This document shows positions 32,145 through 49,043 of a DNA stretch of 64,000 nt, piece after piece. This stretch comes from Gemmatimonadota bacterium. Lineage in GTDB: Bacteria > Gemmatimonadota > Gemmatimonadetes > Palauibacterales > Palauibacteraceae. A program made the translations under genes and the position numbers. Position 1 is the stretch's first letter; every line of letters starts with the position of its first letter. The notes under the pieces are model-generated. The model was not told the DNA's origin and ran no database searches. It was given only the letters and a program-made list of their open reading frames with translations. The stretch is from the NCBI GenBank assembly GCA_039589295.1, contig JBDHHR010000005.1:4919-68918 (forward strand), given 5' to 3'.

Positions 32145-32618
32145 ATGAGCATGTCACTCATGGTTGGCGATAGGGCGCCGGGGTTCACGCTGCCCAGCGA
32201 ACCCGGCAATCAAGTCGATGTCGGAGCGCTGATCGGCAAGGAGAAAGTAGTGCTTCTCTTCTTCCCCCTCGCATTCAGCCCGGTGTGCACAACGGAGATG
32301 TGCACGATCGGCGGCGCCTGGGGGGAGTGGAGCGAGCTGCAGGCGAACGTGTTCGCGATCTCGGTCGACAGCCCGTTCGTCACCGAAAAGTTCCGAACGG
32401 AGGAGAACATCCCCTTCCTCATTCTCTCGGATTTCAACCGACGGGTGGCCAGTCAGTACGACGTCCTCTGCCGGAGCCTATCCGGCCTGGAGGGCGTCGC
32501 CAAGCGCTCGGTCTTCGTTATCGACGAAACAGGCACGATCGTGTACAGCTGGGTTACCGAGGATCCGGGTGTCGAGCCGGATTATGAGGCGGTCAAGGCA
32601 GCGGTGAGGTCTTCATGA
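32145..32618 (+). CDS. Peroxiredoxin (AhpC/TSA / redoxin family)
   Basis: Contains VLLFFPLAFSPVCTTE with the peroxidatic Cys in a PVCT context. Length is 157 aa. A GGAGGA RBS lies upstream. Confidence 0.85.
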   Translation: MSMSLMVGDRAPGFTLPSEPGNQVDVGALIGKEKVVLLFFPLAFSPVCTTEMCTIGGAWGEWSELQANVFAISVDSPFVTEKFRTEENIPFLILSDFNRRVASQYDVLCRSLSGLEGVAKRSVFVIDETGTIVYSWVTEDPGVEPDYEAVKAAVRSS

Positions 32619-33970: not shown

Positions 33971-33974
33971 TACC

Positions 33975-34898
33975 ATGCTCCAACTGCAGAGGATCCTGCT
34001 CCCGACCGACTTCTCCCCGTTGGCCGACGTGGCGCTGGACACGGCCCTCAAGGTGGCGGAGAAGCACCGGGCGACTCTGCACATGCTCCACGCGGTGGTG
34101 TTGCACGCCGATGATCCGAACGACCCGGCGCACCATTTCCCAGACGCCGAGGAGGTGCGGCAGCGGCTCGAGGAAATAGCGGAGAGCCGCATGTCTAGCC
34201 GACTGGAGGAGCGAGAGGCGACAGACATCGAGGTAGTGCGGGCGCAGCGCAGGGGCATATCGGCGGCACCGACGATCCTGGAGTACGCGGAGGAAGTGGA
34301 CGCCGACCTCGTCGTCATGAGCACTCACGGACGGCGAGGTCTCGGGCACGCACTCCTTGGAAGCGTGACCGAGGAGGTCGTACGCCTTTCCCGGGCCCCC
34401 GTTCTCACGATTCGAGGCCACTCGGGAGACGTGCCGGTGCCTCCGCTCACGGACGTACTGGTTCCGGTGGACTTCTCCGCGCATGCCCGGCAGGCAGTCT
34501 CGCATGCCAAAGAGATCTGCGCCGCCTACGGAGCCCGGCTGAACGTGCTGCACGTCTTCGAGCGTCCGATCCACCCGGAGATCTACATCGGTGACGCGAC
34601 CCTGGACTTCCCCGGTTTCAAGGCGGTGGAGGGAAACGTCAGGGAGGCGCTCGACGCCTTCGCCAGCGAGGCGCCCGGTCCCGAAGCGGAGCTCACGGTG
34701 CACCTGCGGGAGGGTCACGCGGTGACTGGCATACTCGAGCTCGCGAGCGAACTCGAGTGCGGCCTTCTGGTCATCGCTACGCATGGCCTGACAGGGGTAG
34801 CGCACATGCTTCTGGGCAGCGTTACGGAGAAGGTGGTCAGAAGGGCGACCTGCCCCGTACTCACGGTCAAGGCGTTCGGCAAGTCGTTGGTAGCATGA
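33975..34898 (+). CDS. Universal stress protein with tandem UspA domains
   Basis: Two Usp repeats each end in a ...LLGSVTE.VVR....PVLTV motif (HALLGSVTEEVVRLSRAPVLTIR and HMLLGSVTEKVVRRATCPVLTVK). Confidence 0.85.
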   Translation: MLQLQRILLPTDFSPLADVALDTALKVAEKHRATLHMLHAVVLHADDPNDPAHHFPDAEEVRQRLEEIAESRMSSRLEEREATDIEVVRAQRRGISAAPTILEYAEEVDADLVVMSTHGRRGLGHALLGSVTEEVVRLSRAPVLTIRGHSGDVPVPPLTDVLVPVDFSAHARQAVSHAKEICAAYGARLNVLHVFERPIHPEIYIGDATLDFPGFKAVEGNVREALDAFASEAPGPEAELTVHLREGHAVTGILELASELECGLLVIATHGLTGVAHMLLGSVTEKVVRRATCPVLTVKAFGKSLVA

Positions 34899-36487
34899 AC
34901 GATGACAAGCCTGGTCAGGTGAGCGGTCTGGGGTACCTGTACGAAGGCACCCGGGCCATCGGGCTGCAGGGAAGCCTCACCGAACTCCTGCGGGAGGTGG
35001 TGAACCGGGCACAGCGGCTGATCGGGTTCGAGCATTGCGCCCTTATGCTCCTGGACGAGCGGACGGAGCGACTCACGATAGAGTACCTGAAGGGCTACGG
35101 AGACCGGGCGGATGCGATGCGCGGGATCTCCCTGGGACTGGGAGAGGGAATCTCGGGCTGGGCGGCGCTGCACCGGCAGTCGGTCCGGGTCGGTGACGTC
35201 TCCCTTGACCCGCGCTACCGGGAAGGGCTGGCCGAGGCGCGATCGAACCTGGCTGTGCCGCTCATAGTCGGCAACCAGGTGGCCGGTGTCATCAACGTCG
35301 AATCCGAGCGGCCGGACGCCTTCACCGCCGAGCACGAGATGTTCCTGACCGTCCTGGGCGCTCAGGCCGCCTTGGCGATCCTGGCCTTTCGCACCCGCGT
35401 GGCGCTGAAGCAGCGACTCGACCAGCTGGGCGCTCTGTACAGGATCAGCAGCCTTGCCAGCGAGGGTGGCAACCTAGGCGTCACGCTCAATTCCATGCTC
35501 GAGATAGCCGGCGAGGTCATCCCGCAGGGTCAGTCGGCAGTTCTACTGATCGACGAGGAGAGAGGGGTTCTTCGGGTGGAAGCGGGGCAGGGCTACGGGG
35601 TCGCCGCGCGGTATCTGGAGATCCCGCTGGGGCACGGGGTGACCGGACGGTGTGCCCAGACCGGCGAGACTCAGGTGGTAAGCGATATTCGTGAGCTCGC
35701 GGAGGATGAGTACATCCCTGGAGTCCCCGGCGCCAGAAGCGAGGTCGCCGTCCCGCTGATCGCCGACGGCGGCATCATCGGCGTGCTGAACGCGGAGGCG
35801 GTGGAACCCGATGCCTTCGGCCGGGAGGACATCCAGACGCTGACGGTGATCGCACGTCAGGCCGCCCAGGTCATACGAAGCGAGCAGCTTCTGCAGGAGA
35901 CCCGACGGCTGGCCATCATGGACTCGCTCACCGGCCTCCACAACAGGCGGCACTTCACGCAGCAGCTGGACGAAGCTGTGGTCCGGGCCCGGCGATACGG
36001 CGAGCGTCTGGCGTTGTTCTTACTGGACCTGGACCACTTCAAGTCCGTGAACGACCGGTTCGGGCACCAGGTGGGCGACCGCTGCCTCCAGCTCGTCGCC
36101 GACGTTCTGCAAGAGGCGGTGCGGGAGAGTGATCACACGGCGCGAATCGGAGGGGAGGAGTTCGCGATCCTGCTGCTCAAGCCGGGCCGTGAGCTGGCTC
36201 TCACCATCGCCGAGCGACTGCGGGATCGCATTCAGGGCCTGGTCCTCAGCGAAGACCCGACTCTGCCCTTCGGTCTGACCGCGTCCATTGGAATCGCCTT
36301 CTTCCCCGACGAGGGTGAAGACCCCAAGTCGCTCATGCGGCTGGCGGACCTGGCGCTCTACGCGGCCAAACAAATGGGGCGCAACCAGGTGGCGCTTGTT
36401 CCCGGCGGGGGAAAGGAGCGAACGATGGTGGCCGGCGATCAGCGCGACGACGACCCGGGCGCCGGAACGACGCCTGCGGACTCGTGA
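34895..36487 (+). CDS. GAF-GAF-GGDEF diguanylate cyclase
   Basis: Two GAF-like sensor domains are followed by a canonical GGDEF domain (LTGLHNRRHF, LFLLDLDHFKSVNDRFGHQVGD, RIGGEEFAILL). The ATG at 34895 overlaps the Usp stop (ATGA). Confidence 0.88.
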   Translation: MNDDKPGQVSGLGYLYEGTRAIGLQGSLTELLREVVNRAQRLIGFEHCALMLLDERTERLTIEYLKGYGDRADAMRGISLGLGEGISGWAALHRQSVRVGDVSLDPRYREGLAEARSNLAVPLIVGNQVAGVINVESERPDAFTAEHEMFLTVLGAQAALAILAFRTRVALKQRLDQLGALYRISSLASEGGNLGVTLNSMLEIAGEVIPQGQSAVLLIDEERGVLRVEAGQGYGVAARYLEIPLGHGVTGRCAQTGETQVVSDIRELAEDEYIPGVPGARSEVAVPLIADGGIIGVLNAEAVEPDAFGREDIQTLTVIARQAAQVIRSEQLLQETRRLAIMDSLTGLHNRRHFTQQLDEAVVRARRYGERLALFLLDLDHFKSVNDRFGHQVGDRCLQLVADVLQEAVRESDHTARIGGEEFAILLLKPGRELALTIAERLRDRIQGLVLSEDPTLPFGLTASIGIAFFPDEGEDPKSLMRLADLALYAAKQMGRNQVALVPGGGKERTMVAGDQRDDDPGAGTTPADS

Positions 36488-36554
36488 GCGAGAGTGAGGT
36501 CGAGAAGTCAGGCAGCGGCACGCCGGGCTTCCGGCAGCGCGGAAGGAGGAAGTC

Positions 36555-36887
36555 TTGAGCGAGGGAAGACTGGCGGACGGACACTGCGTACCGTGCCGCG
36601 GCGGCGTCCCTCCGCTGCACGGGTCGGAGCTCGCTGAGCTCCACGACGAGCTCGGGGGTGGCTGGGACGTCGTTGACGGGCACCACCTCGTGAAGAGTTT
36701 CGACTTCCGCGACTTCCGCGCCGCGCTCGACTTCACGAACCGGGTGGGCGAACTGGCGGAGCAGGAAGGACACCACCCGGACATTGCACTCACCTGGGGG
36801 AAGGTCCGCATCGAGATCTGGACGCACAAGATAGACGGCCTCACCGAGAGCGATTTCATCCTCGCTGCGAAGATCGACAGGCTGTAG
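36555..36887 (+). CDS. phhB: 4a-hydroxytetrahydrobiopterin (pterin-4a-carbinolamine) dehydratase
   Basis: The 110-aa protein carries the PCD motif EGHHPDIALTWGKVRIEIWTHKIDGLTESDFILAAKID. Confidence 0.88.
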   Translation: MSEGRLADGHCVPCRGGVPPLHGSELAELHDELGGGWDVVDGHHLVKSFDFRDFRAALDFTNRVGELAEQEGHHPDIALTWGKVRIEIWTHKIDGLTESDFILAAKIDRL

Positions 36888-36893
36888 AGGTCG

Positions 36894-38018
36894 TTGACAG
36901 GACTGCAGGGGCCGTTGAATCAGCGCAGTGCTCAGAGCCCGGGGGGCCTGGAGATCCTGTTTCTCGACTCCTGGCTCACCGACCGGCCCCGGGGTAGTGG
37001 ATCGGCGGTGGCCATCGCCGGCCTGGTCACAGGTCTGGCGGCGCTGGGACACCAGGTGAGAACCGTCCGCCCCCGCTGGACGACGCCGTTCCTCGACCTT
37101 ACCCGCGTGCTCTTCAACCTCGGCCTCGGCCGGCGCCTCGACGGGCGTCACGCCGACCTGCTGGTGGGATTCGACTACGATGGGTGCTTTCTCGGCCGCT
37201 CCCCGGACCGTCGATATGTGGTTGCGCTCAAGGGCGTCATGGCCGACGAGCTGAGCGTTGAGGCCGGCTGGAACAAGGCGCGCTTCGCTTTTCTCTCCCG
37301 GCTGGAGCAGCGCAATGCCAGGCGGGCCGATCGGGTGCTGGTAACCAGCGAGCACAGTCGACGGGCCGCCGTTCGCCGGTACGACCTTCAGGCCGAGAAG
37401 GTCCGCATCGTTCCCGAGGGCATAGACGTAGATGCCTGGGAACGGCTGCCGCAACCGCGTCCGAAGGCCGGACCGGTCATCCTCAGCGTCGCTCGTCAGT
37501 ACCGGCGGAAGAACACCCGCGCCCTTCTTCGAGCCGTGGCCCTCGTACGGTCAGAGATTCCCGGGGTGACCCTGAGGGTGGTTGGAGATGGCCCCGAGCT
37601 TCCAACCCTCAGGCGGCTGGCCTCCAGCCTCGGCCTGAAAGGCAACGGCGCCGTGTTCCTGGGGTCTCTGGAGAGCCGCGAGGAGTTGCAGCGGGAGTAC
37701 TCCTCGGCGGACCTGTTCTGCCTTCCGTCACGCCAGGAGGGATTCGGCATCGTGTTACTCGAGGCGATGGCGGCGGGACTGCCGATCGTCGCAGCCGACG
37801 CGGCCGCCGTCCCGGAAGTTGCACCGCACGGGGAGGTGGCACTGCTGGTTTCCCCGGATGATCCGGAGGCGCTGGCGTCAGCCATCCTGAGCGTCCTGCG
37901 CGACGAGGTCCTTCGGGAGAGGCTGTCGCTGGGCGGGCGGCGACGCTGGCGCCGGTACGACTGGCCGTCTGTGGCGGAGCGCTTTCTCGAAGCCGCCGAG
38001 GTGCCCTCACCGCCGTAG
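36894..38018 (+). CDS. Glycosyltransferase family 4 (GT-B fold, retaining)
   Basis: The C-terminal GT4 motif region is present (LFCLPSRQEGFGIVLLEAMAAGLPIVAAD, the E-x7-E motif). It uses a TTG start; the true start is uncertain. Confidence 0.8.
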   Translation: MTGLQGPLNQRSAQSPGGLEILFLDSWLTDRPRGSGSAVAIAGLVTGLAALGHQVRTVRPRWTTPFLDLTRVLFNLGLGRRLDGRHADLLVGFDYDGCFLGRSPDRRYVVALKGVMADELSVEAGWNKARFAFLSRLEQRNARRADRVLVTSEHSRRAAVRRYDLQAEKVRIVPEGIDVDAWERLPQPRPKAGPVILSVARQYRRKNTRALLRAVALVRSEIPGVTLRVVGDGPELPTLRRLASSLGLKGNGAVFLGSLESREELQREYSSADLFCLPSRQEGFGIVLLEAMAAGLPIVAADAAAVPEVAPHGEVALLVSPDDPEALASAILSVLRDEVLRERLSLGGRRRWRRYDWPSVAERFLEAAEVPSPP

Positions 38019-38169
38019 ACGACGGCCGGCCCCGAGAACTGCCGAGAACTGCCGCCTTGCTCGGGTGTGCCGCGGCGGCCGATATTGTGAGCTTCGTTTC
38101 GCGGGGCCCGGCGGGTGAGGTCTGCTCCCGTCGTGGGCCGCTCCGACCCGACAGCAAGGCTGAGACCAA

Positions 38170-39684
38170 ATGAGCGACTCGTCAGGGACTCCTCCACCCT
38201 CACCGGCCTCCATCCAACCGAGCGACAAGAGCTTCTTCGGCCATCCGCGGGGTCTGGCCACCCTCTTCTTCACCGAGATGTGGGAACGGTTCAGCTTCTA
38301 CGGCGGTCGGGGAATCCTCATCCTCTTCATGACCGCGGCCGTCGCGACCGGCGGGCTCGGCATGACGACCGCCACCGCGGCGGCCATATACGGACTGTAC
38401 ACGGCATCTGTGTACCTCTTCGCTCTCCCGGGTGGCTGGGTAGCCGACCGGCTGATGGGTCAGCGGAATTCGGTCGTCGCCGGCGGCGTCCTCATAGCGG
38501 CGGGGAACTTCAGCATCGCCACGCCGGGGATGGCGACCTTTTACCTCGGTCTCATCCTGATCGTGCTCGGCACCGGGTTGCTCAAGCCCAACGTGAGCAC
38601 CATCGTCGGCGAGTTATATCCCGAGGGTGGCGCGCGGCGTGATGCCGGTTTCTCGATCTTCTATATGGGGATCAACGTCGGCGCCTTAGTCGCGCCTCTC
38701 ATCTGCGGCTACCTGGGCGAGAACATTAACTGGCACCTCGGGTTCGCGGCGGCGGGCGTGGGCATGGTACTGGGGCTGATCCAGTACAGGCTCGGCTGGG
38801 GCTTCCTGGGAGAGGCCGGCAAATTCCGGGAGGAGGCCCGGGCTACCCGCGGACAGGCGGTCCGCCAGGCCATGCTGGGGGTCCTGCTGGCAGTGATCAT
38901 CGCCCTCGTCCTGTACCTGCTCGGCAGCCGCGGCGTGCTCAACATCACCCTAGAAGGCGCGGCGCAGGCAACCGGCGTGATCATTCTGGCCATAGCCGTG
39001 CTGTTCTTTGCCTCGGTCCTGGCCTTCGGTCACATGGTGTCCGTGGAGAAGCGGCGGGTCGTGTTGATCTTCCTGCTGTTCCTCGGTGCGGCCATATTCT
39101 GGGCCGGTTTCGAGCAGGCCGCGTCGTCACTGAACCTGTTCGCCGAACGGCTGACGGACCGGACGGTGCTCGGGTGGGAGGCGCCGGCGAGTTGGCTTCA
39201 GGCGATCAACCCCCTGTTCATCATCGCCCTCGCGCCGGTGTTCGGCTGGTTGTGGGTCGCCACGAACAACATCGGGCGGGAGCCGTCATTGCCGGTGAAG
39301 TTCGGGCTGGGTCTGGTTCTTCTGGGCGTGGGCTTCCTGGTTATCGCGTGGGGCGCCACGTACGCGACCGACGGCAACTTGGTGAGCCCGGGTTGGTTGG
39401 TTTCCACCTACTTCCTGCATACCTGCGGCGAGCTGTGCCTCAGCCCCGTAGGCCTGAGCAGCATCACCAAGCTCTCGCCGCCGCGGTTCGTCGGACAGAT
39501 GATGGGCACCTGGTTCATGGGTACCGCCCTGGGCAACCTGGTGGCGGGCCTGGTGGCCGGACAGTTCGAGCGCATGCCGCTGCCGCAGCTCTTCTTCACC
39601 GTCGCCATCACGGTGGGTGTGGCCGGAGTGCTGTTCTTCCTGGCCGCGCGGTGGATCAGGAAGATGATGGGGGGCGTGCACTGA
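38170..39684 (+). CDS. Proton-dependent oligopeptide transporter (POT/PTR2 family, DtpT-like)
   Basis: The PTR2 signature FTEMWERFSFYGGRGILILFM is present, followed by 12-14 TM helices. Length is 504 aa. Confidence 0.88.
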   Translation: MSDSSGTPPPSPASIQPSDKSFFGHPRGLATLFFTEMWERFSFYGGRGILILFMTAAVATGGLGMTTATAAAIYGLYTASVYLFALPGGWVADRLMGQRNSVVAGGVLIAAGNFSIATPGMATFYLGLILIVLGTGLLKPNVSTIVGELYPEGGARRDAGFSIFYMGINVGALVAPLICGYLGENINWHLGFAAAGVGMVLGLIQYRLGWGFLGEAGKFREEARATRGQAVRQAMLGVLLAVIIALVLYLLGSRGVLNITLEGAAQATGVIILAIAVLFFASVLAFGHMVSVEKRRVVLIFLLFLGAAIFWAGFEQAASSLNLFAERLTDRTVLGWEAPASWLQAINPLFIIALAPVFGWLWVATNNIGREPSLPVKFGLGLVLLGVGFLVIAWGATYATDGNLVSPGWLVSTYFLHTCGELCLSPVGLSSITKLSPPRFVGQMMGTWFMGTALGNLVAGLVAGQFERMPLPQLFFTVAITVGVAGVLFFLAARWIRKMMGGVH

Positions 39685-39746
39685 GCCGCGTTCCGGAGGA
39701 CGGGCCGGCCTGGTGTTCGTTGGCTGCGGCCGTGTAGATAAGCCAC

Positions 39747-39782
39747 GACGACACGGCCGTCCCGCGGGCCGGCCGGGTCGTC
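39747..39782 (+). terminator. GC-rich stem-loop (13-bp stem with 1 mismatch, 10-nt palindromic loop); candidate intrinsic terminator without U-tract, or regulatory hairpin
   Basis: The sequence reads gacgacacggccg-tcccgcgggc-cggccgggtcgtc, about 60 nt downstream of the POT transporter stop and about 70 nt upstream of the KaiC-like gene start. Confidence 0.35.
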
Positions 39783-39851
39783 TGTAGTGGCACGTCGATT
39801 GCCCCATCGGGGTAACGGTAAGCTACGTCTACTGCGGAGCGGGATCGGCAA

Positions 39852-41315
39852 GTGAGTACATGCACCGGAATCGGCCCGTTCGACGAGCGCCTGGGCGACC
39901 TTCGCTCAGGCGGAGTGTATCTCCTCGCGGGAATGCCCGGCTCGGGCAAGCTCGCCTTCATTCTGCAGTACCTCGCCGAGGGAGTGGGGCACGGCGAACG
40001 GGTGGCCCTGCTCAGCGGCTACGAGCCGGCGGAGGTCTTCGAGCAGGCCGACCACTGGGGACTGGAACTCGAGAAGGCCTGGAAGAGCGACGCGCTGGTA
40101 CTGGCCGGGTTCCGCGGCGAGTATCCGCGGCGGATCCTGCACGCCCCGGATCCCGGAGAGGCGTTCGCCGAGCTCGATCGACTGCTGGACGGGGAGGTGA
40201 CGCGCCTCGGCGTCGATCCGGGCATGCTGCTGTGGGAAACGCGGGCGGGTACGGCCATGGCGCACCAGTTTCTCCAGTGGGCCGACGGTCTGGGCGCCAC
40301 CACCATGGCCACGCTGGTTGGCGACCTGAAGGAGTCCCCCGGACCCTCTACCGAGTGGGTGCTGCAGCGCGCGACAGGCGTGTTTCACTTGGCTCGACTG
40401 GCGGGCGGGCTGCACGAGCTGGCTATCTACCGGATTCACCCGCCGTTGGAGAGCACCGGGCCCATTACGCTGGAGCTGATGCCGGGCGCCGGCTTCGTAG
40501 CTCCTACGGGCCGGATCGGCCGGCGCCGTGGCGACACGGCGGCGGCAGCCGAGGACAGGCTCCTGCTGATGCGGCTGGCAGCCGGACCACCACCCGACGT
40601 CGAGGGCTGGCTCCGCCGGACGTATACGGTGACGGAGGCAAAGGACCCTCTGGAGATGGTCTCTCGCCTGCAGGGTGAGCCGTTCGGCATGCTATGCATT
40701 TCCATCGATCGCGCCCGAACGGAAGAAGCTCTGCAGATCTGCCAAACCGTCCGTCCCATGACCAGCGCGGCTCTCGTCCTGGTGTCCGGCGAACGATTGC
40801 GCTCGGTCGATCGGGCCCGCGCCATAGAAGCCGGCGCCGACGACGTCCTGACGAACGAAGTGAACATCCGGGAGATGGAGTCGAGAATCCGGCGGGCGGC
40901 GACGTGCGCAGGTGAGCGACCGCGGGCCGTTGATCAAGACGGGGGGAGTATCCGGACGCCGGATCCCGTCGATGAGCTCCTGTCGCGAAAAGCCTTCGCG
41001 GCGATCGTGAACGAACGGCTGGCATCGAAGGAGTTCGGTTTCTTCACGTTTGTCGGGCTGGCCGGCGCTCTTCCGCAGGGGACGAGCGAGGCCCTGCGCG
41101 AGAGCATCCGGGTGGAGGCGGGCGATGTGGTCGGGGCGCTGGACGATGGATTCGGAATCGTGCTCCAGGAGGCCCGAGCCGGGCACGCTGAAGGGTTCCT
41201 CGGACGGGTGCGTGCGGCTCTGGCCGAACAACTGGGCGAGGGCGTGGAGCTCGAGACCGAGATCCTGGCCAGCCCAGACGACGCAGAGCGGATTCGGGCG
41301 CTCCTCCCCGGGTAG
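39852..41315 (+). CDS. KaiC/RecA-like ATPase fused to a receiver-like domain and a degenerate GGDEF-like domain
   Basis: The N-terminus (GIGPFDERLGDLRSGGVYLLAGMPGSGKLAFILQYL, Walker A) has the KaiC/RadA-type P-loop. A mid region resembles a CheY-like receiver (MLCISIDRARTEEALQICQTVRPMTSAALVLVSGE...AIEAGADDVLTNEVNIREMESRIRRA). The C-terminus aligns to GGDEF topology but with GGDEF replaced (RKAFAAIVNERL...FGFFTFVGLAG...DVVGALDDGFGIVLQE). It is the first gene of the polysaccharide locus. Confidence 0.7.
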   Translation: MSTCTGIGPFDERLGDLRSGGVYLLAGMPGSGKLAFILQYLAEGVGHGERVALLSGYEPAEVFEQADHWGLELEKAWKSDALVLAGFRGEYPRRILHAPDPGEAFAELDRLLDGEVTRLGVDPGMLLWETRAGTAMAHQFLQWADGLGATTMATLVGDLKESPGPSTEWVLQRATGVFHLARLAGGLHELAIYRIHPPLESTGPITLELMPGAGFVAPTGRIGRRRGDTAAAAEDRLLLMRLAAGPPPDVEGWLRRTYTVTEAKDPLEMVSRLQGEPFGMLCISIDRARTEEALQICQTVRPMTSAALVLVSGERLRSVDRARAIEAGADDVLTNEVNIREMESRIRRAATCAGERPRAVDQDGGSIRTPDPVDELLSRKAFAAIVNERLASKEFGFFTFVGLAGALPQGTSEALRESIRVEAGDVVGALDDGFGIVLQEARAGHAEGFLGRVRAALAEQLGEGVELETEILASPDDAERIRALLPG

Positions 41316-41354
41316 GCGGGCCGGGGACCGCGCAGCGTAGAGGGCACGCCCCGC

Positions 41355-43574
41355 ATGGAGAGATCGACGGTCAGGAGGCGAAGGAGATTCCCCTACTGGG
41401 TCGTGTACACCGGCATCACGACCCTGCTCCTGGCTCTGACGGGGTTTCTGGTTCTCATCGTCCTGCCGGAGCGCTTCGTCCTCCAGGCCGGCCTTCGCGA
41501 ATCCGGTATCTCCTTCCCGGCGTCCACCCTCGGGTTCGGGCCTCCGGCGCGCTCGCCGGTGGTGGAGCCTCCTCCTCCGCCGCCGCGTCCCGTCGCGCCA
41601 GCGATCGGCCCGGCCGAAGCGTTATGGAGTGAACTCACGCCCCTTCTGCGTGTCGGCCGCTATCACGAGGCACTGGCCCGCATGGAGGATTACCTGGCCG
41701 TCCACCCGGGAGACCTCGGAGTCCGGCGGGAACGAGCCAGGACCCTGGCCGGGACCGGCGACCGGCAGCGGGCGAGCGAGGCCCTCGGGCGGCTGGCCGA
41801 CGAACCTGGCGAGCTCCAGGACGGCCTGGCTCTCGCCCGCTTCATTCGTGATGCGGGCGAGTTGAGCGAGGCGGTCGAGATCTACCGGACGCTTGTCGAC
41901 AGGTACCCGGACGATGCGGATCTCAGGTACGAGTTGGCGCAGGCGCTCATGTGGTCGGAGCGCTACCGGGAGGCGGAGGCCGAGTTCCGCGCGCTAATCC
42001 GGCTGCGGCCGACGGAGGATGTGTACCGCCTCGAGCTGGCGCGGGTCCTGTACTGGACCGACAGGCTCGAGGAAGCGCGATCCGTTCTGGCTGCTATCTC
42101 CCCCGAGGCCGAGAGCCGGATGGAAGCCGACGCGCTCGACGCCGAGCTGGTGACTCTGCTTGCTCCTGTCGAGCCGGAACCCGAGCCGGTGGACCAATCA
42201 CCGCTGGCTCGAGCGAGGCGTGCGGCGGCAGCCGGCGAGCTGCAGTTGGCCGCCGAGCTCTACCGGGAAGCCCTGCAGGCGGATTCAGGAGACGCCGTAC
42301 TGTGGCTGGAATGGATAGACTTTCAGCAGCGGCGGCTCGGGGACCTGGAGGGCGCCAGGGACGAGCTCATCGCGTACGATGGGCGCTTCGGTCTTTCCCC
42401 CGAGCTGGAGTACCGGCTGGCGCTGCTGCACACGTGGACCGAGCGGAACGAGGAGGCCCGGCTCATCCTCCTCAGGCTCCTGGAGACCAGTCCGAACCGG
42501 GCAGAGGCCTGGAGCCTGCTCGGCGATGTTTATCGCTGGAGCGGGGAAAGACCCGCCGCGGCCGGTGCCTACCGCCGGGCCCTCGTCCTGGATCCGGCAG
42601 ACCCGCGGGCGCTGGCGGGTGCCGCGGACCTCGGATTGCAGCGGGAGCGCATCGTCGCGGCTCGCGAGCGGCGGGGCTACGGGCCACGGGCGAGCGCCTA
42701 CGGCGACTCGGATGAGTATCGGAGATTCGAGCTGGAGGCGGACGCGAGGTTAGCCTTCCCACGCAGCAGTTCGGCTCTCCGGGTGGCAACCGGCTACCGG
42801 TGGCTGGAGGGACTGGATGTTTCCGGCGTCGAGACCACCGACGATGGCCCTTACACAGAGGCCGAGCTCATCCACTGGTGGCGTGAGGCGACCATCCGCA
42901 CGGCCCTTCGAGCCGGAGTACAGTACCTGCGAGGATTCGGCCTCGAGCCGAGTTTCGGCCTGGACGTCGAAGTGCCCGATGCGGGGGGATTCGGCCTCCT
43001 CGGAACGCTGGAGCACGCACCCGCGTACCCGCTCACGGCCACCCTGGAGAGCGTGCAGCAGCCGGTACGAGCCGACCGACTCTTCGTGTCCCTGTTCCGC
43101 TCGCTGGGCGAGCGATGGAGCGTGGGCGGTACCGCGGATGTGGCCGTTCTGACCCATACGGAGGCGAACAACATACGGTGGGGCGGGCGGCTCACGCTGG
43201 GATGGAATGTCTCGCGCCGGGTCGTCGGAGAGCTGAGCTCAAGCTACCTGTCATACACCGACGCGGCCCCTCGCAGCGCGCTGCGAGGGATCTACTGGGA
43301 CCCGGCTTCCTTCTGGGCGACGACGTTGTCGCTGGGCCTGCGGGAACGGCCCGAACTGGGCTGGGGGTACGGCGTCATGCTGACGGGAGGCGCTGCCCTG
43401 ATGGACGAACGCAGCGCGACCGGTACGGTGTGGCTGCCACAGTTTGCGGTCGAGGGGAAGCTGTCGCAAACTGGCCGGAGGCAGGACTTCGAGCTGAGAG
43501 CCTTCTACCGCCGGGGACGGGAGAGGGATTACAGCTCGCTCGGGCTCGACCTGAAGCTGCTCGTGAGGCCGTAG
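41355..43574 (+). CDS. TPR-repeat protein with beta-rich C-terminal domain, PgaA/BcsC-like polysaccharide export candidate
   Basis: An N-terminal TM/signal anchor is followed by a Pro-rich linker, ~8 TPR-like repeats (many W..LG/A..Y...G motifs), and a ~280-aa C-terminal region with alternating hydrophobic patterns ending LGLDLKLLVRP, which is beta-barrel-like. It sits immediately upstream of the PgaC-like synthase. Confidence 0.65.
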   Translation: MERSTVRRRRRFPYWVVYTGITTLLLALTGFLVLIVLPERFVLQAGLRESGISFPASTLGFGPPARSPVVEPPPPPPRPVAPAIGPAEALWSELTPLLRVGRYHEALARMEDYLAVHPGDLGVRRERARTLAGTGDRQRASEALGRLADEPGELQDGLALARFIRDAGELSEAVEIYRTLVDRYPDDADLRYELAQALMWSERYREAEAEFRALIRLRPTEDVYRLELARVLYWTDRLEEARSVLAAISPEAESRMEADALDAELVTLLAPVEPEPEPVDQSPLARARRAAAAGELQLAAELYREALQADSGDAVLWLEWIDFQQRRLGDLEGARDELIAYDGRFGLSPELEYRLALLHTWTERNEEARLILLRLLETSPNRAEAWSLLGDVYRWSGERPAAAGAYRRALVLDPADPRALAGAADLGLQRERIVAARERRGYGPRASAYGDSDEYRRFELEADARLAFPRSSSALRVATGYRWLEGLDVSGVETTDDGPYTEAELIHWWREATIRTALRAGVQYLRGFGLEPSFGLDVEVPDAGGFGLLGTLEHAPAYPLTATLESVQQPVRADRLFVSLFRSLGERWSVGGTADVAVLTHTEANNIRWGGRLTLGWNVSRRVVGELSSSYLSYTDAAPRSALRGIYWDPASFWATTLSLGLRERPELGWGYGVMLTGGAALMDERSATGTVWLPQFAVEGKLSQTGRRQDFELRAFYRRGRERDYSSLGLDLKLLVRP

Positions 43575-43577
43575 AAG

Positions 43578-44918
43578 ATGGCGAGCCGACTGAGGCACCT
43601 GGGCCCCCTGCTGGTGATCGCAACCGCGATCGCGCTCACATCTCTGTTCTTCATTTGGCTGGTGCGTTCGCCGGACCGGCTACGGGTGTTCGTCATCCAG
43701 CTTCTCCTGATTTCCCTGGTGATCTTCCTCGGGATCCTGCTGATCCGTTACTTCACCCTCCTGTGGTTCGGATACCTGCAGCACCAGGAGAGGGGGATCC
43801 GGGGAGATGTGTCTGATGTCGAGCTGCCGCCGGTCTCGGTGGTAGTACCGGCTTACAACGAGGCCACGGTCATCGGCCGCGCCATCGACAGCCTTCTGCG
43901 GCTGGACTACCCGCTGTACGAGGTGATCGTGGTGGACGACGGTTCGGGCGACGGGACGCTCGCGATAGCGGGCGCCAAGGAGGGCCTCCACGAGGGAGTG
44001 GAGGTGCGGGTCTTCTCCAAGCCCAACGGGGGAAAGGCGACTGCCCTGAACCTGGGCATCCACAACGCCCGTTACCCGTTCATCCTGTGCATGGATGCCG
44101 ATTCGATAGTAGAACCGCAGCTTCTGCGAACGTCCGTTCCACACTTCCGCGATCCGTCGGTCGGCGCCGTGGCGGGAAACGTCAAGGTGGAGAACCGCCA
44201 CGGGCTGCTGACCCGACTGCAGGCGCTGGAGTACATCGAGGGACTCAACATGCCGCGCCGCGCCCAGGGCTTCATAGCCGCGGTGAACATAGTGCCGGGA
44301 CCGGTGGGCGTTTTCCGTCGCGAGGCGCTGACCGACGTCGGCGACTACGATACCGACACCTTTGCGGAGGACGCGGACCTGACGCTGAAGCTGATCACCG
44401 AAGGGTGGAAGATAGTCTACGAGGATCAGGCGATCGCCTGGACGCAGGCGCCCGAACGTTTCATCGACCTGGTTCAGCAACGCTACCGCTGGACCCGAGG
44501 TATCCTGCAGGCTGTCCGGAAGCGCAAAGGGCTCCTGTGGCGCCCTGTCCCCGACTTCCCGCTGTGGCTGTCGGGCACGGAGATGGTGTTCGAGGCAATC
44601 ATCTGGCCGATAATGAACGTCTACGCTCACCTGTTCTTCGCCTTAGTCGCGCTTCTGTTCGGCCGCGGGGAGCTCCTGTTGTACTGGTGGATCCTCCTCA
44701 CCCTGCTGGACCTGGTGGCGGCGCTGGTGACCGTCTCGATGGAGGAGGAGTCTCTGTCGCTCGTTCCGCTGGCCATCGTTTACCGCTTCTTTTTCATTCT
44801 GTTTCTGGACGTGACCAAGGCGTTCGCCTCGGTCGAGGAGTTCTTCCGCTTCGGCATGGAGTGGGACAAGCTGCGGCGCGTCCCCGTGGGGAGCGGCGTT
44901 GAGGAGAGTGCCATATGA
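43578..44918 (+). CDS. pgaC: GT2 processive beta-glycan synthase, PgaC/IcaA-like (poly-beta-1,6-GlcNAc synthase family)
   Basis: Motifs VIVVDDGSGDGT, CMDADS and QQRYRWTRG (QxxRW) are present, plus two N-terminal and three C-terminal TM helices. Length is 446 aa, as in PgaC. Confidence 0.85.
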   Translation: MASRLRHLGPLLVIATAIALTSLFFIWLVRSPDRLRVFVIQLLLISLVIFLGILLIRYFTLLWFGYLQHQERGIRGDVSDVELPPVSVVVPAYNEATVIGRAIDSLLRLDYPLYEVIVVDDGSGDGTLAIAGAKEGLHEGVEVRVFSKPNGGKATALNLGIHNARYPFILCMDADSIVEPQLLRTSVPHFRDPSVGAVAGNVKVENRHGLLTRLQALEYIEGLNMPRRAQGFIAAVNIVPGPVGVFRREALTDVGDYDTDTFAEDADLTLKLITEGWKIVYEDQAIAWTQAPERFIDLVQQRYRWTRGILQAVRKRKGLLWRPVPDFPLWLSGTEMVFEAIIWPIMNVYAHLFFALVALLFGRGELLLYWWILLTLLDLVAALVTVSMEEESLSLVPLAIVYRFFFILFLDVTKAFASVEEFFRFGMEWDKLRRVPVGSGVEESAI

Positions 44919-45106
44919 GCATCGTCGACCTGTTGATCATGATCATCGTGGTGACGATCCTGGTTACCATCGTGCTGGGTGTCATCACCTATCTGGCGTA
45001 CAAGCTGCGGAGGTCGCGGCGGCCGGAATCAGAGGTGGAGGAGGCGTTCGGAACGTGGTACTTCGTGCGGCATCTGCCCGAGCGGGGGCGGGCTGAGGAG
45101 GTCTGA
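44915..45106 (+). CDS. Small single-TM membrane protein, candidate PgaD/IcaD-like synthase partner
   Basis: The 63-aa protein is MSIVDLLIMIIVVTILVTIVLGVITYLAYKLRRSRR... It is ATGA-coupled to the pgaC-like stop and precedes the deacetylase. Assigned by position only. Confidence 0.45.
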   Translation: MSIVDLLIMIIVVTILVTIVLGVITYLAYKLRRSRRPESEVEEAFGTWYFVRHLPERGRAEEV

Positions 45107-45111
45107 CCGTA

Positions 45112-47052
45112 ATGCCGCCGAGATCGGAGCCGGTACCGCGCGCCCGCGCTGCAGTTCACTGGCTGAGCGGCCTGGCGCTGCTGGGTATCCTGGCAGGCGG
45201 CGTGATAGCCGCCGCGGTGGCCCTGTGGGAGAACGTCGACGTCCGCAGTCTAGCGCGGCAGGCGGCCGGCGTGACCGAGTCGCCGCCGCTTCCGGGGGAG
45301 CAGACCGGTCCGATGGCAGTGAGTCCCGCAGGCACGGTTTCCGCGCTCCTCGTCTCCCGGGCAAGCGCCGGCTTCTTCCCGGATAGTTCATTCTACCCGG
45401 CGACAATCCGGAGGTGGGAGACCATGCTGGAGGAACTTGGCAGCGTGCGACGCATAGCGTCAGCCGCGGAAATGGCGGAGCTGCCCCCAGGCGCTCTTCT
45501 GGTCGCCCCCGACGCGATCTGCCTGGCTCAGATGGAGGTCGACGCTCTGAGCAGCCATGTCGAAGCGGGGGGCAGCCTGGTGATCGACCGGGCGACGGGC
45601 GCCCGCGACGAGAAGTGTGAGTGGCGGGGCTGGAACGTAGTTCAATCGCTTACCGGGTCCATCGATGTGCTGGAGCGGCCGGCGGAGCAGTCCCTGTTCT
45701 TCACACTCCCCGCGGGGCTGCCGCTATCGGCCGGACTGGCGCCCGGTACCCGGGTGGAGCTGCACCCGGACGCCCGCCTGGGCTTGCTGACGACAGGGCC
45801 GCGCGCCTACTGGTCGGATTGGGCCCTGAATCCAGTCTCGCCCGAGGGGAAGCCCTCGCCTGACGCGGCTGCGGTGCTGCGAAAGGCCGACGGTGAAGGC
45901 CGAGGCCGGGTGGCGTGGTTCGGCTTCCGCACGGGACAGGGCGCAGGCGATCGCAACGAAGCTCTCCTCAGTCAGGTTCTGCGCAACGGCACGCGATGGG
46001 CCGCCGGCGTGCTCATGGCCGAGGTGTCCCCGTGGCCGGCGGGAAGACAGGCCGCGCTGCTCATAGGCCAGGACGTCGAGTCCGGATTCGCCAACGCGGC
46101 TTACCTCGCCGCTTTGCTGCGAGAGAAGGCCGCTCGGGCCTCGTTCTTTGTCGTATCAGAGCTAGCTCAGGAGAATCCCGACGTTGCGGACTCTCTGCTC
46201 GGAGCCGGGGAGATCGGCAGCCAGACCGCGGATCACTATCCCACCGCGGGGCTCCCTCTGGGCGAGCAGACGCTGAGGCTGCGCCGGAGCTGGAGCCAGC
46301 TGCGCCGCTGGTCCGGCCGGCCGCCGGTAGGACTGCGCCCGCCGGAGGAACGGTTCGATGAGAACACGCTTCGGGCATGGCGCGAGGTGGGTGGCGAGTA
46401 CATCGCCGCGGTCAACGACGCTCGCTCCGCGGCTCCGGAGGTTTACACGACGCCGGCCGGGCCCGTGGTTCTCCTCCCGCGTCTTGTCGATGACGATTAC
46501 AACGTCCTGGTGCAGGAAGGAGCCCGCCGCACCCGCCGACTCCGGGACGCGTACCTGCAGGGGATGCGTAAGCTAGGTCCCCTCGGAGGAATAGCTTACC
46601 TCGCCCTGCACACGCAGATCGGCGGAACACCGGATCGGGTGGGCGTCGTCGGGGAGGTAATCGACAGCGCGCGCAGCCAGCCGGGGAACTGGTGGCTGGC
46701 CACGGGCGAGGAAATCGCGCGATGGTGGCTGGCCCGTGACGGGGTCGTGCTGAACCTGCCGGAGTCGGATCCCGACTCGTTGCAGGTTCGGGTGCTGAGC
46801 GGAGACGGGTTGGCCGGGGGCTGGATCGAAGTGTACGGCGACGCCCTGGCGTCGCTCGTGCCGTTCGACAGCGAGCGGCAGCTGCCCTATGCCCGAACCG
46901 AATGGGGACTGCGATTCGCCATGCCCGAGCTTCCCGGCGGCGAAACCAGGACGTTCATCCTGAGACCAGAGCCGGAGGTATCCGGGGAAACCCACGAACC
47001 GGACCGAGACGCTTCGGCAGAGGATACGGCACTTGTCCCCTCCCCCTCGTGA
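45112..47052 (+). CDS. Polysaccharide deacetylase-family protein (PgaB-like, membrane-anchored)
   Basis: An N-terminal TM anchor and a central NodB-like region (ALLIGQDVESGFANAAYLAALLREKAARASFFVVSE...) are present, plus C-terminal extra domains. Length is 646 aa and it sits immediately after the synthase genes. Confidence 0.7.
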   Translation: MPPRSEPVPRARAAVHWLSGLALLGILAGGVIAAAVALWENVDVRSLARQAAGVTESPPLPGEQTGPMAVSPAGTVSALLVSRASAGFFPDSSFYPATIRRWETMLEELGSVRRIASAAEMAELPPGALLVAPDAICLAQMEVDALSSHVEAGGSLVIDRATGARDEKCEWRGWNVVQSLTGSIDVLERPAEQSLFFTLPAGLPLSAGLAPGTRVELHPDARLGLLTTGPRAYWSDWALNPVSPEGKPSPDAAAVLRKADGEGRGRVAWFGFRTGQGAGDRNEALLSQVLRNGTRWAAGVLMAEVSPWPAGRQAALLIGQDVESGFANAAYLAALLREKAARASFFVVSELAQENPDVADSLLGAGEIGSQTADHYPTAGLPLGEQTLRLRRSWSQLRRWSGRPPVGLRPPEERFDENTLRAWREVGGEYIAAVNDARSAAPEVYTTPAGPVVLLPRLVDDDYNVLVQEGARRTRRLRDAYLQGMRKLGPLGGIAYLALHTQIGGTPDRVGVVGEVIDSARSQPGNWWLATGEEIARWWLARDGVVLNLPESDPDSLQVRVLSGDGLAGGWIEVYGDALASLVPFDSERQLPYARTEWGLRFAMPELPGGETRTFILRPEPEVSGETHEPDRDASAEDTALVPSPS

Positions 47053-47129
47053 GGCAACCTTATTCCCTTATTCATTTGGATTCCCTCCGGCGCGGCCGAT
47101 TAGAGTGAGATCACCTTCCGGGAGGCATC

Positions 47130-49043
47130 TTGGGTGAGAAGGAAGTACGCCTGGAAGTGGACGGGGCGGGACTCCGCCTCTTCACGCAGGCTCTCCTTCG
47201 CGACGTGCGCGCTCTGGAGCAGTTGCTGGCCACAGGCGCCATCGAGTCCGGGGTGCGGCGCGTAGGTCTCGAGCAGGAACTCTTCCTGGTAGACGACATG
47301 TGGCGGGCGGCCCCTGTGGCGGTCGAGGCGCTCGAGCTCGTCGACGATCCTCGCGTCACCAGTGAGATCGGCCGGTTCAACCTCGAGTGCAACCTCGATC
47401 CGCTCATCTTCGGCGGTGACTGCCTCCGGCGCATGGAGCAGGATGTGGACGCTCTGCTGGAGACTGTGCGCGAGGCGGTGGCTCAGCTCGGGGCGAACAT
47501 CGTCCTGATCGGTATCCTCCCGACGTTGCGGAAATCAGACCTGAGTATAGACAACATCTTCCCGGCGAACAGGTATTACGCGCTGAACGACGCGCTGACC
47601 CGTTTGCGGGGAGGTCCGTACGATCTCCGCATCAAGGGGACCGACGATCTGCGCGTCACGCACGATTCGGTTATGCTTGAGGCAGCTAACGCCAGCTTCC
47701 AGGCTCATTTCCAGGTCGGCCCCGAAGAGTTCGCCAATCTTTACAACATCGCGATGACGGCCAGCGCGCCGGTCCTCGCCGCAGCCGTCAACTCACCGCT
47801 CATGCTGGGACGCCGCCTGTGGCACGAGACCCGGATCGCTGTGTTCCAGCAATCCATCGACACGCGAGCCGCCATGCCGGAGGTGCGTGACCTGTCGCCG
47901 CGGGTGAGCTTCGGGCGGGAGTGGGTCGACGAATCGGTTCTGGAGGTGTTCAAGGCCGACATCTCGCGTTTCAAGGTGTTGCTGGGACGGGAGATCGACG
48001 AGGATCCCTTCGAGGCCATGGAGGAGGGACGGGTCCCGACCCTGCAGGCTCTTCAGCTCTTCAACAGCACTGTCTACCGCTGGAATCGAGCGTGTTACGG
48101 TGTTGCGGACGGAGTAGCGCACCTGCGAATCGAGAACCGGGTGCTGCCATCGGGACCTACGGTACTGGACGAGATCTCGAACGCGGCCTTCTGGTTCGGT
48201 GTGGTGGCCGGGCTGGCGAACGAAGTGGACGACGTGCGGGAGACGATAGCCTTCCACACGGTGCGCACCAACTTCGTCGCGGCCGCGCGCCACGGCCTGG
48301 ACGCCCAGATGACGTGGCTGGACGGCGAGACTCTCACTGCGCAGGAATTGATTTGCCGGCGGCTCTTGCCGTTCGCCCGGAGAGGTCTGGAAGCGAGCGC
48401 CATAGACGGCCAGGATATCGACCGCTATCTGGGGACCATCGAGGCGCGGGTCGGCTCGCGTCGCACCGGTGCTCACTGGCAGCTGGGCTCGCTCGCTTCG
48501 ATGGGGGAGGATGGGACGCTGGAGGAGCGGATGGCGGCGCTGGTAGCCGCCACCGTCAGCCGCCAGGCCGAGGGTCAGCCCGTGCACCATTGGAGCGAGG
48601 CCGGGTTGGACGAGTCCGGGGGCTGGAAGCCCAGCTTTCAGCGCGTCGAGCAGTACATGTGTACCGACCTGGTCACGGTGAACGAGGAGGAGCCCATCGA
48701 TCTGGTCGCCAACTTGATGGACTGGCATAGGATTCACCATGTGCCTGTCGAAGACCACGAGCACCGGCTCGTGGGGCTGATGTCCCAGAGGCCTCTCATG
48801 CGCTTCCTGGCCAGCGACGAGGCGCGCCGGGCGGAGGGCCCGATCCCGGTGAGCGATCTCATGCAGCGTGAGCTCATAACCGCCTCACCAGAGACGTCGA
48901 CCATCGAAGCCATCGAGAAGATGAGACAGCACGGCATTAGCTGCCTGCCGGTGGTGCGGGAGGGAAGGCTGGTCGGAATCGTGACCGAGCATGACTTCAT
49001 GCGCATCGCGGGCCAACTGCTGGAGGAGAAGCTTCGGGAGTGA
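47130..49043 (+). CDS. GCS2-family carboxylate-amine ligase (YbdK/EgtA-like glutamate-cysteine ligase family 2) fused to a C-terminal CBS-domain pair
   Basis: The N-terminal ~370 aa carry GCS2 hallmarks (VGLEQELFLVD, GTDDLRVTHDSVMLEAANASFQAHFQV, STVYRWNR). The C-terminal ~130 aa have two CBS motifs (VTVNEEEPIDLVANLMDWHRIHHVPVEDHEHRLVGLMS and ITASPETSTIEAIEKMRQHGISCLPVVREGRLVGIVTEHD). TTG start. Confidence 0.75.
   Translation: MGEKEVRLEVDGAGLRLFTQALLRDVRALEQLLATGAIESGVRRVGLEQELFLVDDMWRAAPVAVEALELVDDPRVTSEIGRFNLECNLDPLIFGGDCLRRMEQDVDALLETVREAVAQLGANIVLIGILPTLRKSDLSIDNIFPANRYYALNDALTRLRGGPYDLRIKGTDDLRVTHDSVMLEAANASFQAHFQVGPEEFANLYNIAMTASAPVLAAAVNSPLMLGRRLWHETRIAVFQQSIDTRAAMPEVRDLSPRVSFGREWVDESVLEVFKADISRFKVLLGREIDEDPFEAMEEGRVPTLQALQLFNSTVYRWNRACYGVADGVAHLRIENRVLPSGPTVLDEISNAAFWFGVVAGLANEVDDVRETIAFHTVRTNFVAAARHGLDAQMTWLDGETLTAQELICRRLLPFARRGLEASAIDGQDIDRYLGTIEARVGSRRTGAHWQLGSLASMGEDGTLEERMAALVAATVSRQAEGQPVHHWSEAGLDESGGWKPSFQRVEQYMCTDLVTVNEEEPIDLVANLMDWHRIHHVPVEDHEHRLVGLMSQRPLMRFLASDEARRAEGPIPVSDLMQRELITASPETSTIEAIEKMRQHGISCLPVVREGRLVGIVTEHDFMRIAGQLLEEKLRE

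Follow-up and report, generated by a model that had tools for sequence, protein, structure and literature searches.

The Escherichia coli protein BcsE combines a catalytically incompetent RecA/KaiC-like NTPase domain with a degenerate receiver and a degenerate GGDEF domain (PMC7439463, PMC11470070, PMC8892547), and binds an intercalated dimer of cyclic di-GMP (c-di-GMP) through R415TGD in the GGDEF-like domain and R306ATD in the receiver-like domain (PMC11470070, PMC7439463, PMC8892547). The protein is recruited to the membrane by BcsF, a 63-aa single-pass protein whose cytosolic tail adds a beta-strand to the N-terminal domain (NTD) of BcsE (PMC7439463, PMC11470070, PMC8892547), and is considered characteristic of the E. 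coli-like (type II) cellulose systems found in beta- and gamma-Proteobacteria (PMC8892547). PelD of the Pel system, also a c-di-GMP receptor with a degenerate GGDEF domain, differs in that it is a membrane protein, carries a GAF domain as well as a canonical RxxD I-site, and has neither a RecA-like nor a receiver domain. Here we analysed a 64,000-nt stretch of DNA from a Gemmatimonadota bacterium (assembly GCA_039589295.1, contig JBDHHR010000005.1, positions 4,919 to 68,918; hereafter, the window), in which a gene at positions 39852..41315 of the forward strand encodes a 487-aa protein with the three-part design of BcsE. This protein, hereafter the regulator, stands at the head of an operon with a PgaC-type polysaccharide synthase.

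The preliminary description of the locus, made without database searches, had read the protein as a KaiC-like P-loop ATPase joined to receiver-like and degenerate GGDEF domains, considered this architecture unusual, and put it forward as a candidate new switch dependent on c-di-GMP and ATP. The three-domain reading holds, with matches to Pfam KaiC and to the NCBIfam OmpR-type receiver model and with a full-length Foldseek alignment to BcsE. The AlphaFold model of the regulator, built on 35 sequences, has a mean pLDDT of 86.7, and its five best Foldseek matches in the PDB are all E. coli BcsE chains from the Bcs macrocomplex, aligned over 516-528 columns, which is essentially full length (E-values of 1.8e-16 to 1.2e-14, TM-scores up to 0.52), followed by KaiC at about 1e-13. 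Among solved proteins, BcsE is the only one that fits all three domains in order, and with the same design in the best full-length structural match (PMC7439463, PMC11470070) the architecture itself can no longer be regarded as unusual. What is new is the setting, namely, that the design of BcsE occurs, with an ATPase domain that has decayed less, in a PgaC-type operon and in Gemmatimonadota rather than in the beta- and gamma-Proteobacteria that host BcsE; in the full-text literature, we found no BcsE-like or KaiC-like c-di-GMP protein described outside the BcsE papers.

The regulator thus shows the tripartite arrangement of BcsE, with an NTPase-type domain, a phosphorylation-incompetent receiver and a dead GGDEF domain in the same order and within a polypeptide of similar size (487 aa compared with 523 aa). 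The first domain, a partly degenerate KaiC/FlaH-like RecA fold, extends over 39852..40517 (about residues 1-222), and belongs to the KaiC-like RecA superfamily by both family-model match and fold: Pfam KaiC (PF06745) scores above its cutoff, with the match spanning residues 5-85 only, and the family profile reaches KaiC in the PDB at 2e-20. The middle domain (40551..40910, about residues 234-353) has the receiver fold (PF00072) and is matched by the NCBIfam OmpR-type receiver model at 1.9e-8 and, in profile searches against the PDB, at 2e-12; a profile of the receiver-like and GGDEF-like tandem likewise finds RegX3, PmrA, PrrA and similar receivers at about 1e-12. The C-terminal domain (40983..41312, about residues 378-487) is a minimal degenerate GGDEF fold (PF00990), and the 122 C-terminal residues modelled alone reach a pLDDT of 94.5. 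At the sequence level the GGDEF signals are weak (GGDEF_2 in 10 and GGDEF in 2 of the 35 members), and the window protein itself gives no PF00990 match. This domain is shorter than its counterpart in BcsE, without the C-terminal tail by which BcsE binds BcsQ.

A word-indexed search yielded 57 full-length homologues of the regulator with 44-54% identity, those with a source name being metagenome-assembled genomes of Gemmatimonadota, and in an exhaustive profile search with the regulator family, 91 cluster representatives scored E < 1e-30, among them many full-length proteins (about 490-540 aa), with identities down to 21%. Motif conservation was counted over 87 family members, again down to 21% identity. 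As judged from the sequence, the open reading frame (ORF) is a real gene. It has a GTG start with GGAG 12 nt upstream, and this start can be taken as right because the homologues align from residue 1. The public JGI gene call P0001, an identical protein of 460 aa, begins at M28, cuts into the P-loop and omits 39852-39932, and by the same reading is too short; its source name is 'CheY-like chemotaxis protein'. All the strings quoted in the preliminary description were found, GIGPFDERLGDLRSGG at residues 6-21, GMPGSGKLAFILQYL at residues 27-41 and DDGFG at residues 431-435. No Rfam family or tRNA was detected in the window, and a promoter/terminator scan of 39500-47300 returned none beyond shuffled expectation. 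In pattern scans, which came down to generic receiver motifs, the matches listed were two unrelated receiver loci in genome contigs (with the family alignment) and one unrelated locus in metagenome contigs (with the single protein).

The most conserved positions of the family lie in the receiver-like and GGDEF-like domains, where R317, R420, G424, D425 and R452, and also G328, are invariant in all 87 members, and E341 and R345 are each present in 86. Two motifs that include some of these positions align with the c-di-GMP-binding sites of BcsE, the second of them with its Arg displaced. The first is R317-S-V-D320 (40800..40811), an RxxD motif on helix 4 of the receiver-like domain, within LRSVDRARAIEAGADD, which hhalign pairs with LRATDERLLLACGAN of BcsE, such that LRSVD of the regulator lies at the same place as LRATD, the receiver I-site R306ATD; R317 is invariant and D320 is found in 80 of the 87 members, with Thr in the other seven. 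The regulator thus possesses the second RxxD that characterises BcsE. The other motif, the I-site-like R420-V-E-A-G424-D425 (41109..41126), is located five residues before the degenerate hairpin of the GGDEF-like domain, and hhalign places G424-D425 on G417-D418 of R415TGD, so that a conserved xGD precedes the hairpin by five residues in both proteins; the column of R415 is occupied by E422, and the Arg is displaced, giving RxxxGD. The preliminary description had proposed a search for an I-site, and the outcome is mixed: the canonical RxxD of a GGDEF domain is absent (EAGD, with the invariant Arg two residues upstream), whereas the RxxD with an invariant Arg in the receiver, overlooked at the time, is present.

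Downstream of the regulator, four further genes follow on the same strand. A gap of 39 nt separates it from a gene for a tetratricopeptide repeat (TPR) protein (41355..43574), the C-terminal region of which putatively forms an outer-membrane porin and which, in its type of domains, resembles PgaA/BcsC; multiple Pfam TPR families match this protein, and its NCBIfam PgaA and BcsC matches are confined to the TPR part. After 3 nt comes the gene for a processive membrane GT2 synthase with a QQRYRW motif (43578..44918), which is PgaC-like: its best NCBIfam match is PgaC_IcaA (1.1e-59; 202 bits, under the equivalog cutoff of 422), and it shares 33% identity over 248 aa with E. coli PgaC (tblastn, E = 2e-39). 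The start of a gene for a 63-aa single-pass membrane protein (44915..45106) overlaps the GT2 stop by 4 nt, and 5 nt further lies the gene for a membrane-anchored CE4 polysaccharide deacetylase (45112..47052; Pfam Polysacc_deac_1, 9.2e-11), whose best sequence matches in the PDB are fungal chitin deacetylases. BcsE and the regulator are thus both encoded alongside a synthase-dependent polysaccharide system, the synthase being BcsA in one case and PgaC-like in the other. A PilZ domain is missing from the GT2 itself, and PgaD gave no tblastn match in the window. The E. coli pgaABCD operon, whose PgaCD is the c-di-GMP-responsive PNAG synthase, follows the same logic, with genes for a porin and a deacetylase and with the synthase gene followed by one for a small membrane protein, but it differs in the domain make-up of its deacetylase and lacks a counterpart of the cytosolic three-domain regulator. 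PgaD comprises two helices in 137 aa, whereas the small protein described here has one transmembrane helix in 63 aa; with no similarity and a different topology, its identification as PgaD was rejected.

The association of the regulator with polysaccharide genes, already emphasised in the preliminary description, extends far beyond the window. The five-gene order of regulator, TPR porin, PgaC-like GT2, single-pass protein of 61-77 aa and CE4 deacetylase is found in close relatives that share the flanks of the window (loci L004 and L006; in L005, the contig ends within the start of the TPR gene that follows the regulator) and in relatives of about 25-32% identity with wholly different flanks (L008, L009, L010 and L014), of which L009 lacks the deacetylase. 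The porin follows the regulator across the cassette loci. The preliminary description had held that its reading would fall if homologues were never linked to glycosyltransferase loci, and these distant cassettes show that they are. Since the cassette recurs with unrelated flanks in such distant relatives, the regulator is, with high probability, a functional part of the polysaccharide system, be it as a subunit or as a regulator of it.

The 63-aa membrane protein, which the preliminary description had overlooked, is conserved as well. Homologues from ten loci all have an N-terminal transmembrane helix followed by the juxtamembrane sequence YKLRRxRxP and, about ten residues past it, the motif [WYFIL][YF]F[VE]R[HYFI], represented in the window by the cytosolic WYFVRH. 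The small ORF occupies the same cassette position in L004, L006, L008, L009, L010 and L014, where the sequence covers the region, and its dN/dS is 0.1-0.6 over the 39 gap-free codons. In three further loci that form one clade (L003, 10001-11658; L011, 8001-9665; L012, 8001-9734), with about 10 kb covered on each side of the regulator, the flanking synteny of the window is preserved and the porin, GT2 and deacetylase genes are missing; what remains is the regulator and, directly after it, the small ORF, both intact and the latter under purifying selection. The small ORF has therefore been kept while its GT2 and deacetylase neighbours were lost, indicative of selection on the pair, and because of this retention we propose the small protein as the partner of the regulator, and not simply as a PgaD-like subunit of the synthase. 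That it is the real partner of the regulator is likely. Each of the two three-domain proteins, BcsE and the regulator, comes with a single-pass membrane protein of roughly 63 aa whose juxtamembrane segment is basic and whose tail lies in the cytosol; the difference is that, outside the orphan-pair clade, the small protein described here is encoded after the GT2 and not after the regulator.

Taken together with the known behaviour of BcsE, these features suggest the following mechanism. The regulator, built like E. coli BcsE, would serve in the cytosol as the regulatory subunit of an exopolysaccharide machine of the synthase-dependent kind, with a PgaC-type synthase. Its receiver-GGDEF tandem would bind c-di-GMP through R317xxD320 and R420xxxG424D425, as BcsE does through R306ATD and R415TGD, a prediction made by analogy with that protein. 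The decayed NTPase domain would act as a dimerisation and docking module and not as an enzyme, with nucleotide binding at most; the small protein would tether the regulator to the inner membrane beside the synthase through its cytosolic [WYF][YF]F[VE]R motif, in the manner of BcsF; and the bound regulator would raise the output of the PgaC-like synthase when c-di-GMP is present, given a GT2 without PilZ and an operon that encodes no PgaD. The roles assigned here to the NTD and to the small protein, and the stimulation of the synthase, are likewise predicted. This mechanism is favoured by the lack of a competing sensor in the window, where BcsQ, BcsR, BcsG and PgaD were undetected. More specifically, tblastn searches of the window with E. 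coli BcsQ, BcsR, BcsF and BcsG returned nothing at E < 0.1, such that a type II bcs cluster is not present, and BcsA matched only the PgaC-like GT2, weakly. In our assessment, the BcsE-like mechanism as a whole, with a sensor-anchor pair resembling BcsE/BcsF, has an even chance of being correct.

Several observations weigh against it, most of them concerning homology. The Pfam family of BcsE (PF10995) matches neither the regulator nor any of the 35 members, even at E <= 5, and BLASTP of the regulator against E. coli BcsE is not significant. In hhalign, the profile of 35 sequences against BcsE reaches a probability of 0.3%, and with the profile of 87 sequences the NTD alone against that of BcsE is not significant either (0.2%). 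By HMMER, the receiver-like domain is nearer to ordinary OmpR-type receivers (2e-12) and to PleD (4e-10), with BcsE not in the best 60 listed, and the family profile likewise lists no BcsE among its best 60 in the PDB. The site in the GGDEF-like domain, RxxxGD, is neither the canonical RxxD nor the RxGD of BcsE: E422, in the column of R415, is a variable acidic position, and the invariant R420 stands two residues upstream. Given these results for the three-domain protein, its resemblance to BcsE could represent a convergent assembly of three common domains. For the small protein, 4 of the 10 homologues have Pfam BcsF as their best match, with E-values of 0.003-5.9 that lie below the threshold, and in a control with about 3000 segment-shuffled BcsF sequences the real one came only 254th. 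Two further points concern the mechanism more directly, namely, that the retained Lys33 and Asp122 of the NTD would make nucleotide binding possible, and that the family is not exclusively tied to a PgaC-type synthase, as the orphan-pair clade and the Tad-linked relatives described below demonstrate.

A larger profile of 87 sequences does align with enterobacterial BcsE, at 84.5% (P = 6.9e-6) for the receiver-like and GGDEF-like domains, pairing LRSVD with LRATD and AGD with TGD, and at 73.7% over the full length, collinear across 416 columns; both values were obtained under a greedy alignment setting and without an hhalign control of ordinary receiver-GGDEF proteins. This moderate match is suggestive only. 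We therefore file the regulator as a protein that works like BcsE and treat homology between the two as possible but unproven. For the small protein, given the sub-threshold Pfam matches and the rank in the shuffled control, we claim no sequence homology to BcsF; the likeness is one of size and topology.

The Tad-linked relatives belong to the most distant subfamily (about 21-25% identity), in which the receiver carries RxxT instead of RxxD. In L013 (1-10509), an RxxT member is located beside genes for a secretin, a TadZ-like ATPase, T2SSE, two T2SSF proteins and a Tad protein, and in L016 (171-3024), another has a gene for a TadG-like protein beside it and two GGDEF genes in the vicinity; neither locus has polysaccharide genes near the RxxT member. 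Since this subfamily adjoins Tad/Flp pilus genes, the architecture may serve more than one envelope machine. It is then conceivable that the regulator and the small protein form an autonomous module and a general envelope adaptor with other targets, such as a synthase encoded elsewhere or pili, in which case the regulator would lead the operon more because the genes are co-regulated than because it directly controls the neighbouring GT2. Such a role would account for the three genomes that retain the pair without porin, GT2 and deacetylase at the locus, as well as for the two Tad-linked loci. However, amid otherwise unrelated flanks the regulator still directly precedes porin, GT2 and small ORF, together with the deacetylase everywhere except in L009, and the genes of the cassette are separated by very short gaps or overlap, while in the orphan genomes the synthase may have been relocated beyond the 10 kb covered on each side. 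We consider this explanation unlikely.

Equally unlikely, in our view, is that the regulator is a nucleotide-driven switch of the KaiC/FlaH kind, in which the NTD would bind ATP, oligomerise and gate the assembly or activity of the synthase complex, its relatives would hydrolyse ATP or autophosphorylate, and the receiver-like and GGDEF-like domains would be protein-protein adaptors for which c-di-GMP is no ligand. The P-loop of the regulator, GMPGSGKL (39930..39953, residues 27-34), retains its glycines and Lys33, the latter conserved in 80 of the 87 members, but Leu34 takes the place of the Mg-binding Ser/Thr, such that the canonical Walker A motif GxxxxGK[ST] is lacking. The Walker B-like strand RLGVDPG (40203..40223) preserves Asp122, which is found in 81 of the 87 members. 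With respect to the Walker B and catalytic Glu for which the preliminary description had proposed a check, the former is therefore there, and the KaiC-type Glu pair after beta2 is not: it is reduced to a single E58 in the window protein and is unconserved in its subfamily. Across the family, GK[ST] occurs in 39 of the 87 members and in none of the window's subfamily, and in a sister clade the P-loop has become GGADTAKL. Distant full-length relatives, in contrast, possess a textbook GxPGxGK[ST], the [DE][DE]P of the Glu pair and hhhDS, as in KaiC, so that the ancestral protein was probably an active NTPase and the family shows an ATPase undergoing decay.

A nucleotide-driven switch would draw support from these retained motifs and from the fact that the canonical RxxD I-site of the GGDEF domain is not intact. 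Yet decay of this kind in the window's subfamily and its sister clade would be unexpected if catalysis were the function, and the residues that are invariant across the family (R317, R420, G424, D425 and R452) fall in the receiver-like and GGDEF-like domains, not in the P-loop. Moreover, BcsE, in which the NTD is far more decayed than in the regulator with its P-loop Lys and its fully canonical relatives, shows that the architecture works without ATP (PMC7439463). The ATP-dependent part of the switch suggested earlier is accordingly weak for the window protein, with its Leu in Walker A and a Glu pair that its subfamily does not conserve. The same losses of Ser/Thr and catalytic Glu, along with the fusion to the receiver-GGDEF tandem, set its NTD apart from the single-domain KaiC-like proteins of the archaeal FlaH/ArlH type (FlaH/ArlH, PH0284 and SSO2452), which are stand-alone and have a full Walker A motif.

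As to enzymatic activity of the C-terminal half, the hairpin where the catalytic GG[DE]EF would be expected reads DDGFG (41142..41156) and is variable in the family, in agreement with the loss of the cyclase signature inferred in the preliminary description, and the domain has about 110 aa, compared with about 160 aa for a full-length GGDEF domain. In the receiver-like domain, the acidic pair after beta1 is replaced (LLLMRLAAG) and the beta5 Lys is substituted by Asn335 (G/Q/A/D in other members), with Ser/Thr312 as the only phosphorylation residue retained; a phospho-acceptor Asp, which had also been marked for checking, does stand at the expected position in the window protein (D286), but across the family this residue may be D, E, P, R, T or N. 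Despite the presence of both folds and of D286, the motifs therefore contradict a reading of the protein as an active diguanylate cyclase and/or a phosphorylatable response regulator, which was rejected as extremely improbable.

If the BcsE-like mechanism applies, BcsE-style control may extend beyond cellulose and beyond Proteobacteria, a matter of interest for specialists in c-di-GMP signalling and polysaccharide secretion. As the design heads an operon without PilZ or PgaD, it suggests what may be the missing c-di-GMP input of PgaC-type operons, and with the 63-aa protein as the likely partner, the model is directly testable. The series from intact to decayed Walker motifs within the family can be used to probe the role of the NTPase-like domain. 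On a broader and more tentative view, which we find somewhat doubtful, the regulator and the 63-aa protein constitute an ancient portable c-di-GMP sensor-anchor module of Gemmatimonadota, a counterpart and possibly an evolutionary relative of BcsE/BcsF. Such a module might plug into PgaC-type synthases and, in the variant subfamily, into Tad pili, with ATPase-competent forms persisting, and this too we regard as a possibility on the less probable side. Were it so, polysaccharide synthases would quite generally undergo 'activation by proxy', through a secondary c-di-GMP sensor tethered to the membrane, and this would not be peculiar to enterobacteria; the family would then also document the stages by which a KaiC-like ATPase decays into the inert docking domain of BcsE.

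The surroundings of the cassette vary among lineages. In the window, a canonical GAF-GAF-GGDEF cyclase with an intact RESD...GGEEF (34895..36487; GGDEF E = 3e-49) is encoded 3365 bp upstream of the regulator. The preliminary description had drawn attention to this neighbour, and the cyclase does exist; as a dedicated partner of the regulator it was rejected, being syntenic only in close relatives and absent from the distant cassettes. Different nucleotide cyclases neighbour the regulator in different lineages: in L014 (5906-8869), the gene immediately upstream encodes a HAMP domain and a class III nucleotidyl cyclase (Guanylate_cyc). The region upstream of the cassette that is syntenic in the closer relatives (32615-39684) comprises genes for an M28 peptidase-PDZ protein, Usp, the GAF-GAF-GGDEF cyclase, a pterin-4a dehydratase, a GT4 and a POT transporter, and the one downstream (47130-50248) includes a gene that fuses glutamate-cysteine-ligase-2 with a CBS pair, along with an AstE/AspA-like gene; within this fixed frame, the polysaccharide genes are either present or absent. 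In L004 (2776-4127 and 13679-19140), the M28 peptidase, GT2, deacetylase and GCS2-CBS genes are split into fragments, which looks like frameshifts introduced by long-read assembly rather than pseudogenisation.

Big_2 and Tricorn/PD40-like genes are also found downstream of the cassette in L008 and L010. Two cassettes are closely followed on their downstream side by GH18 (chitinase-family) genes (L014, 16309-17418; L010, 15979-16998), a hint that the polymer could be chitin- or chitosan-like rather than beta-1,6 poly-N-acetylglucosamine (PNAG). On the gene content, the polymer is probably based on N-acetylglucosamine, and both a chitin-like and a PNAG linkage would be possible.

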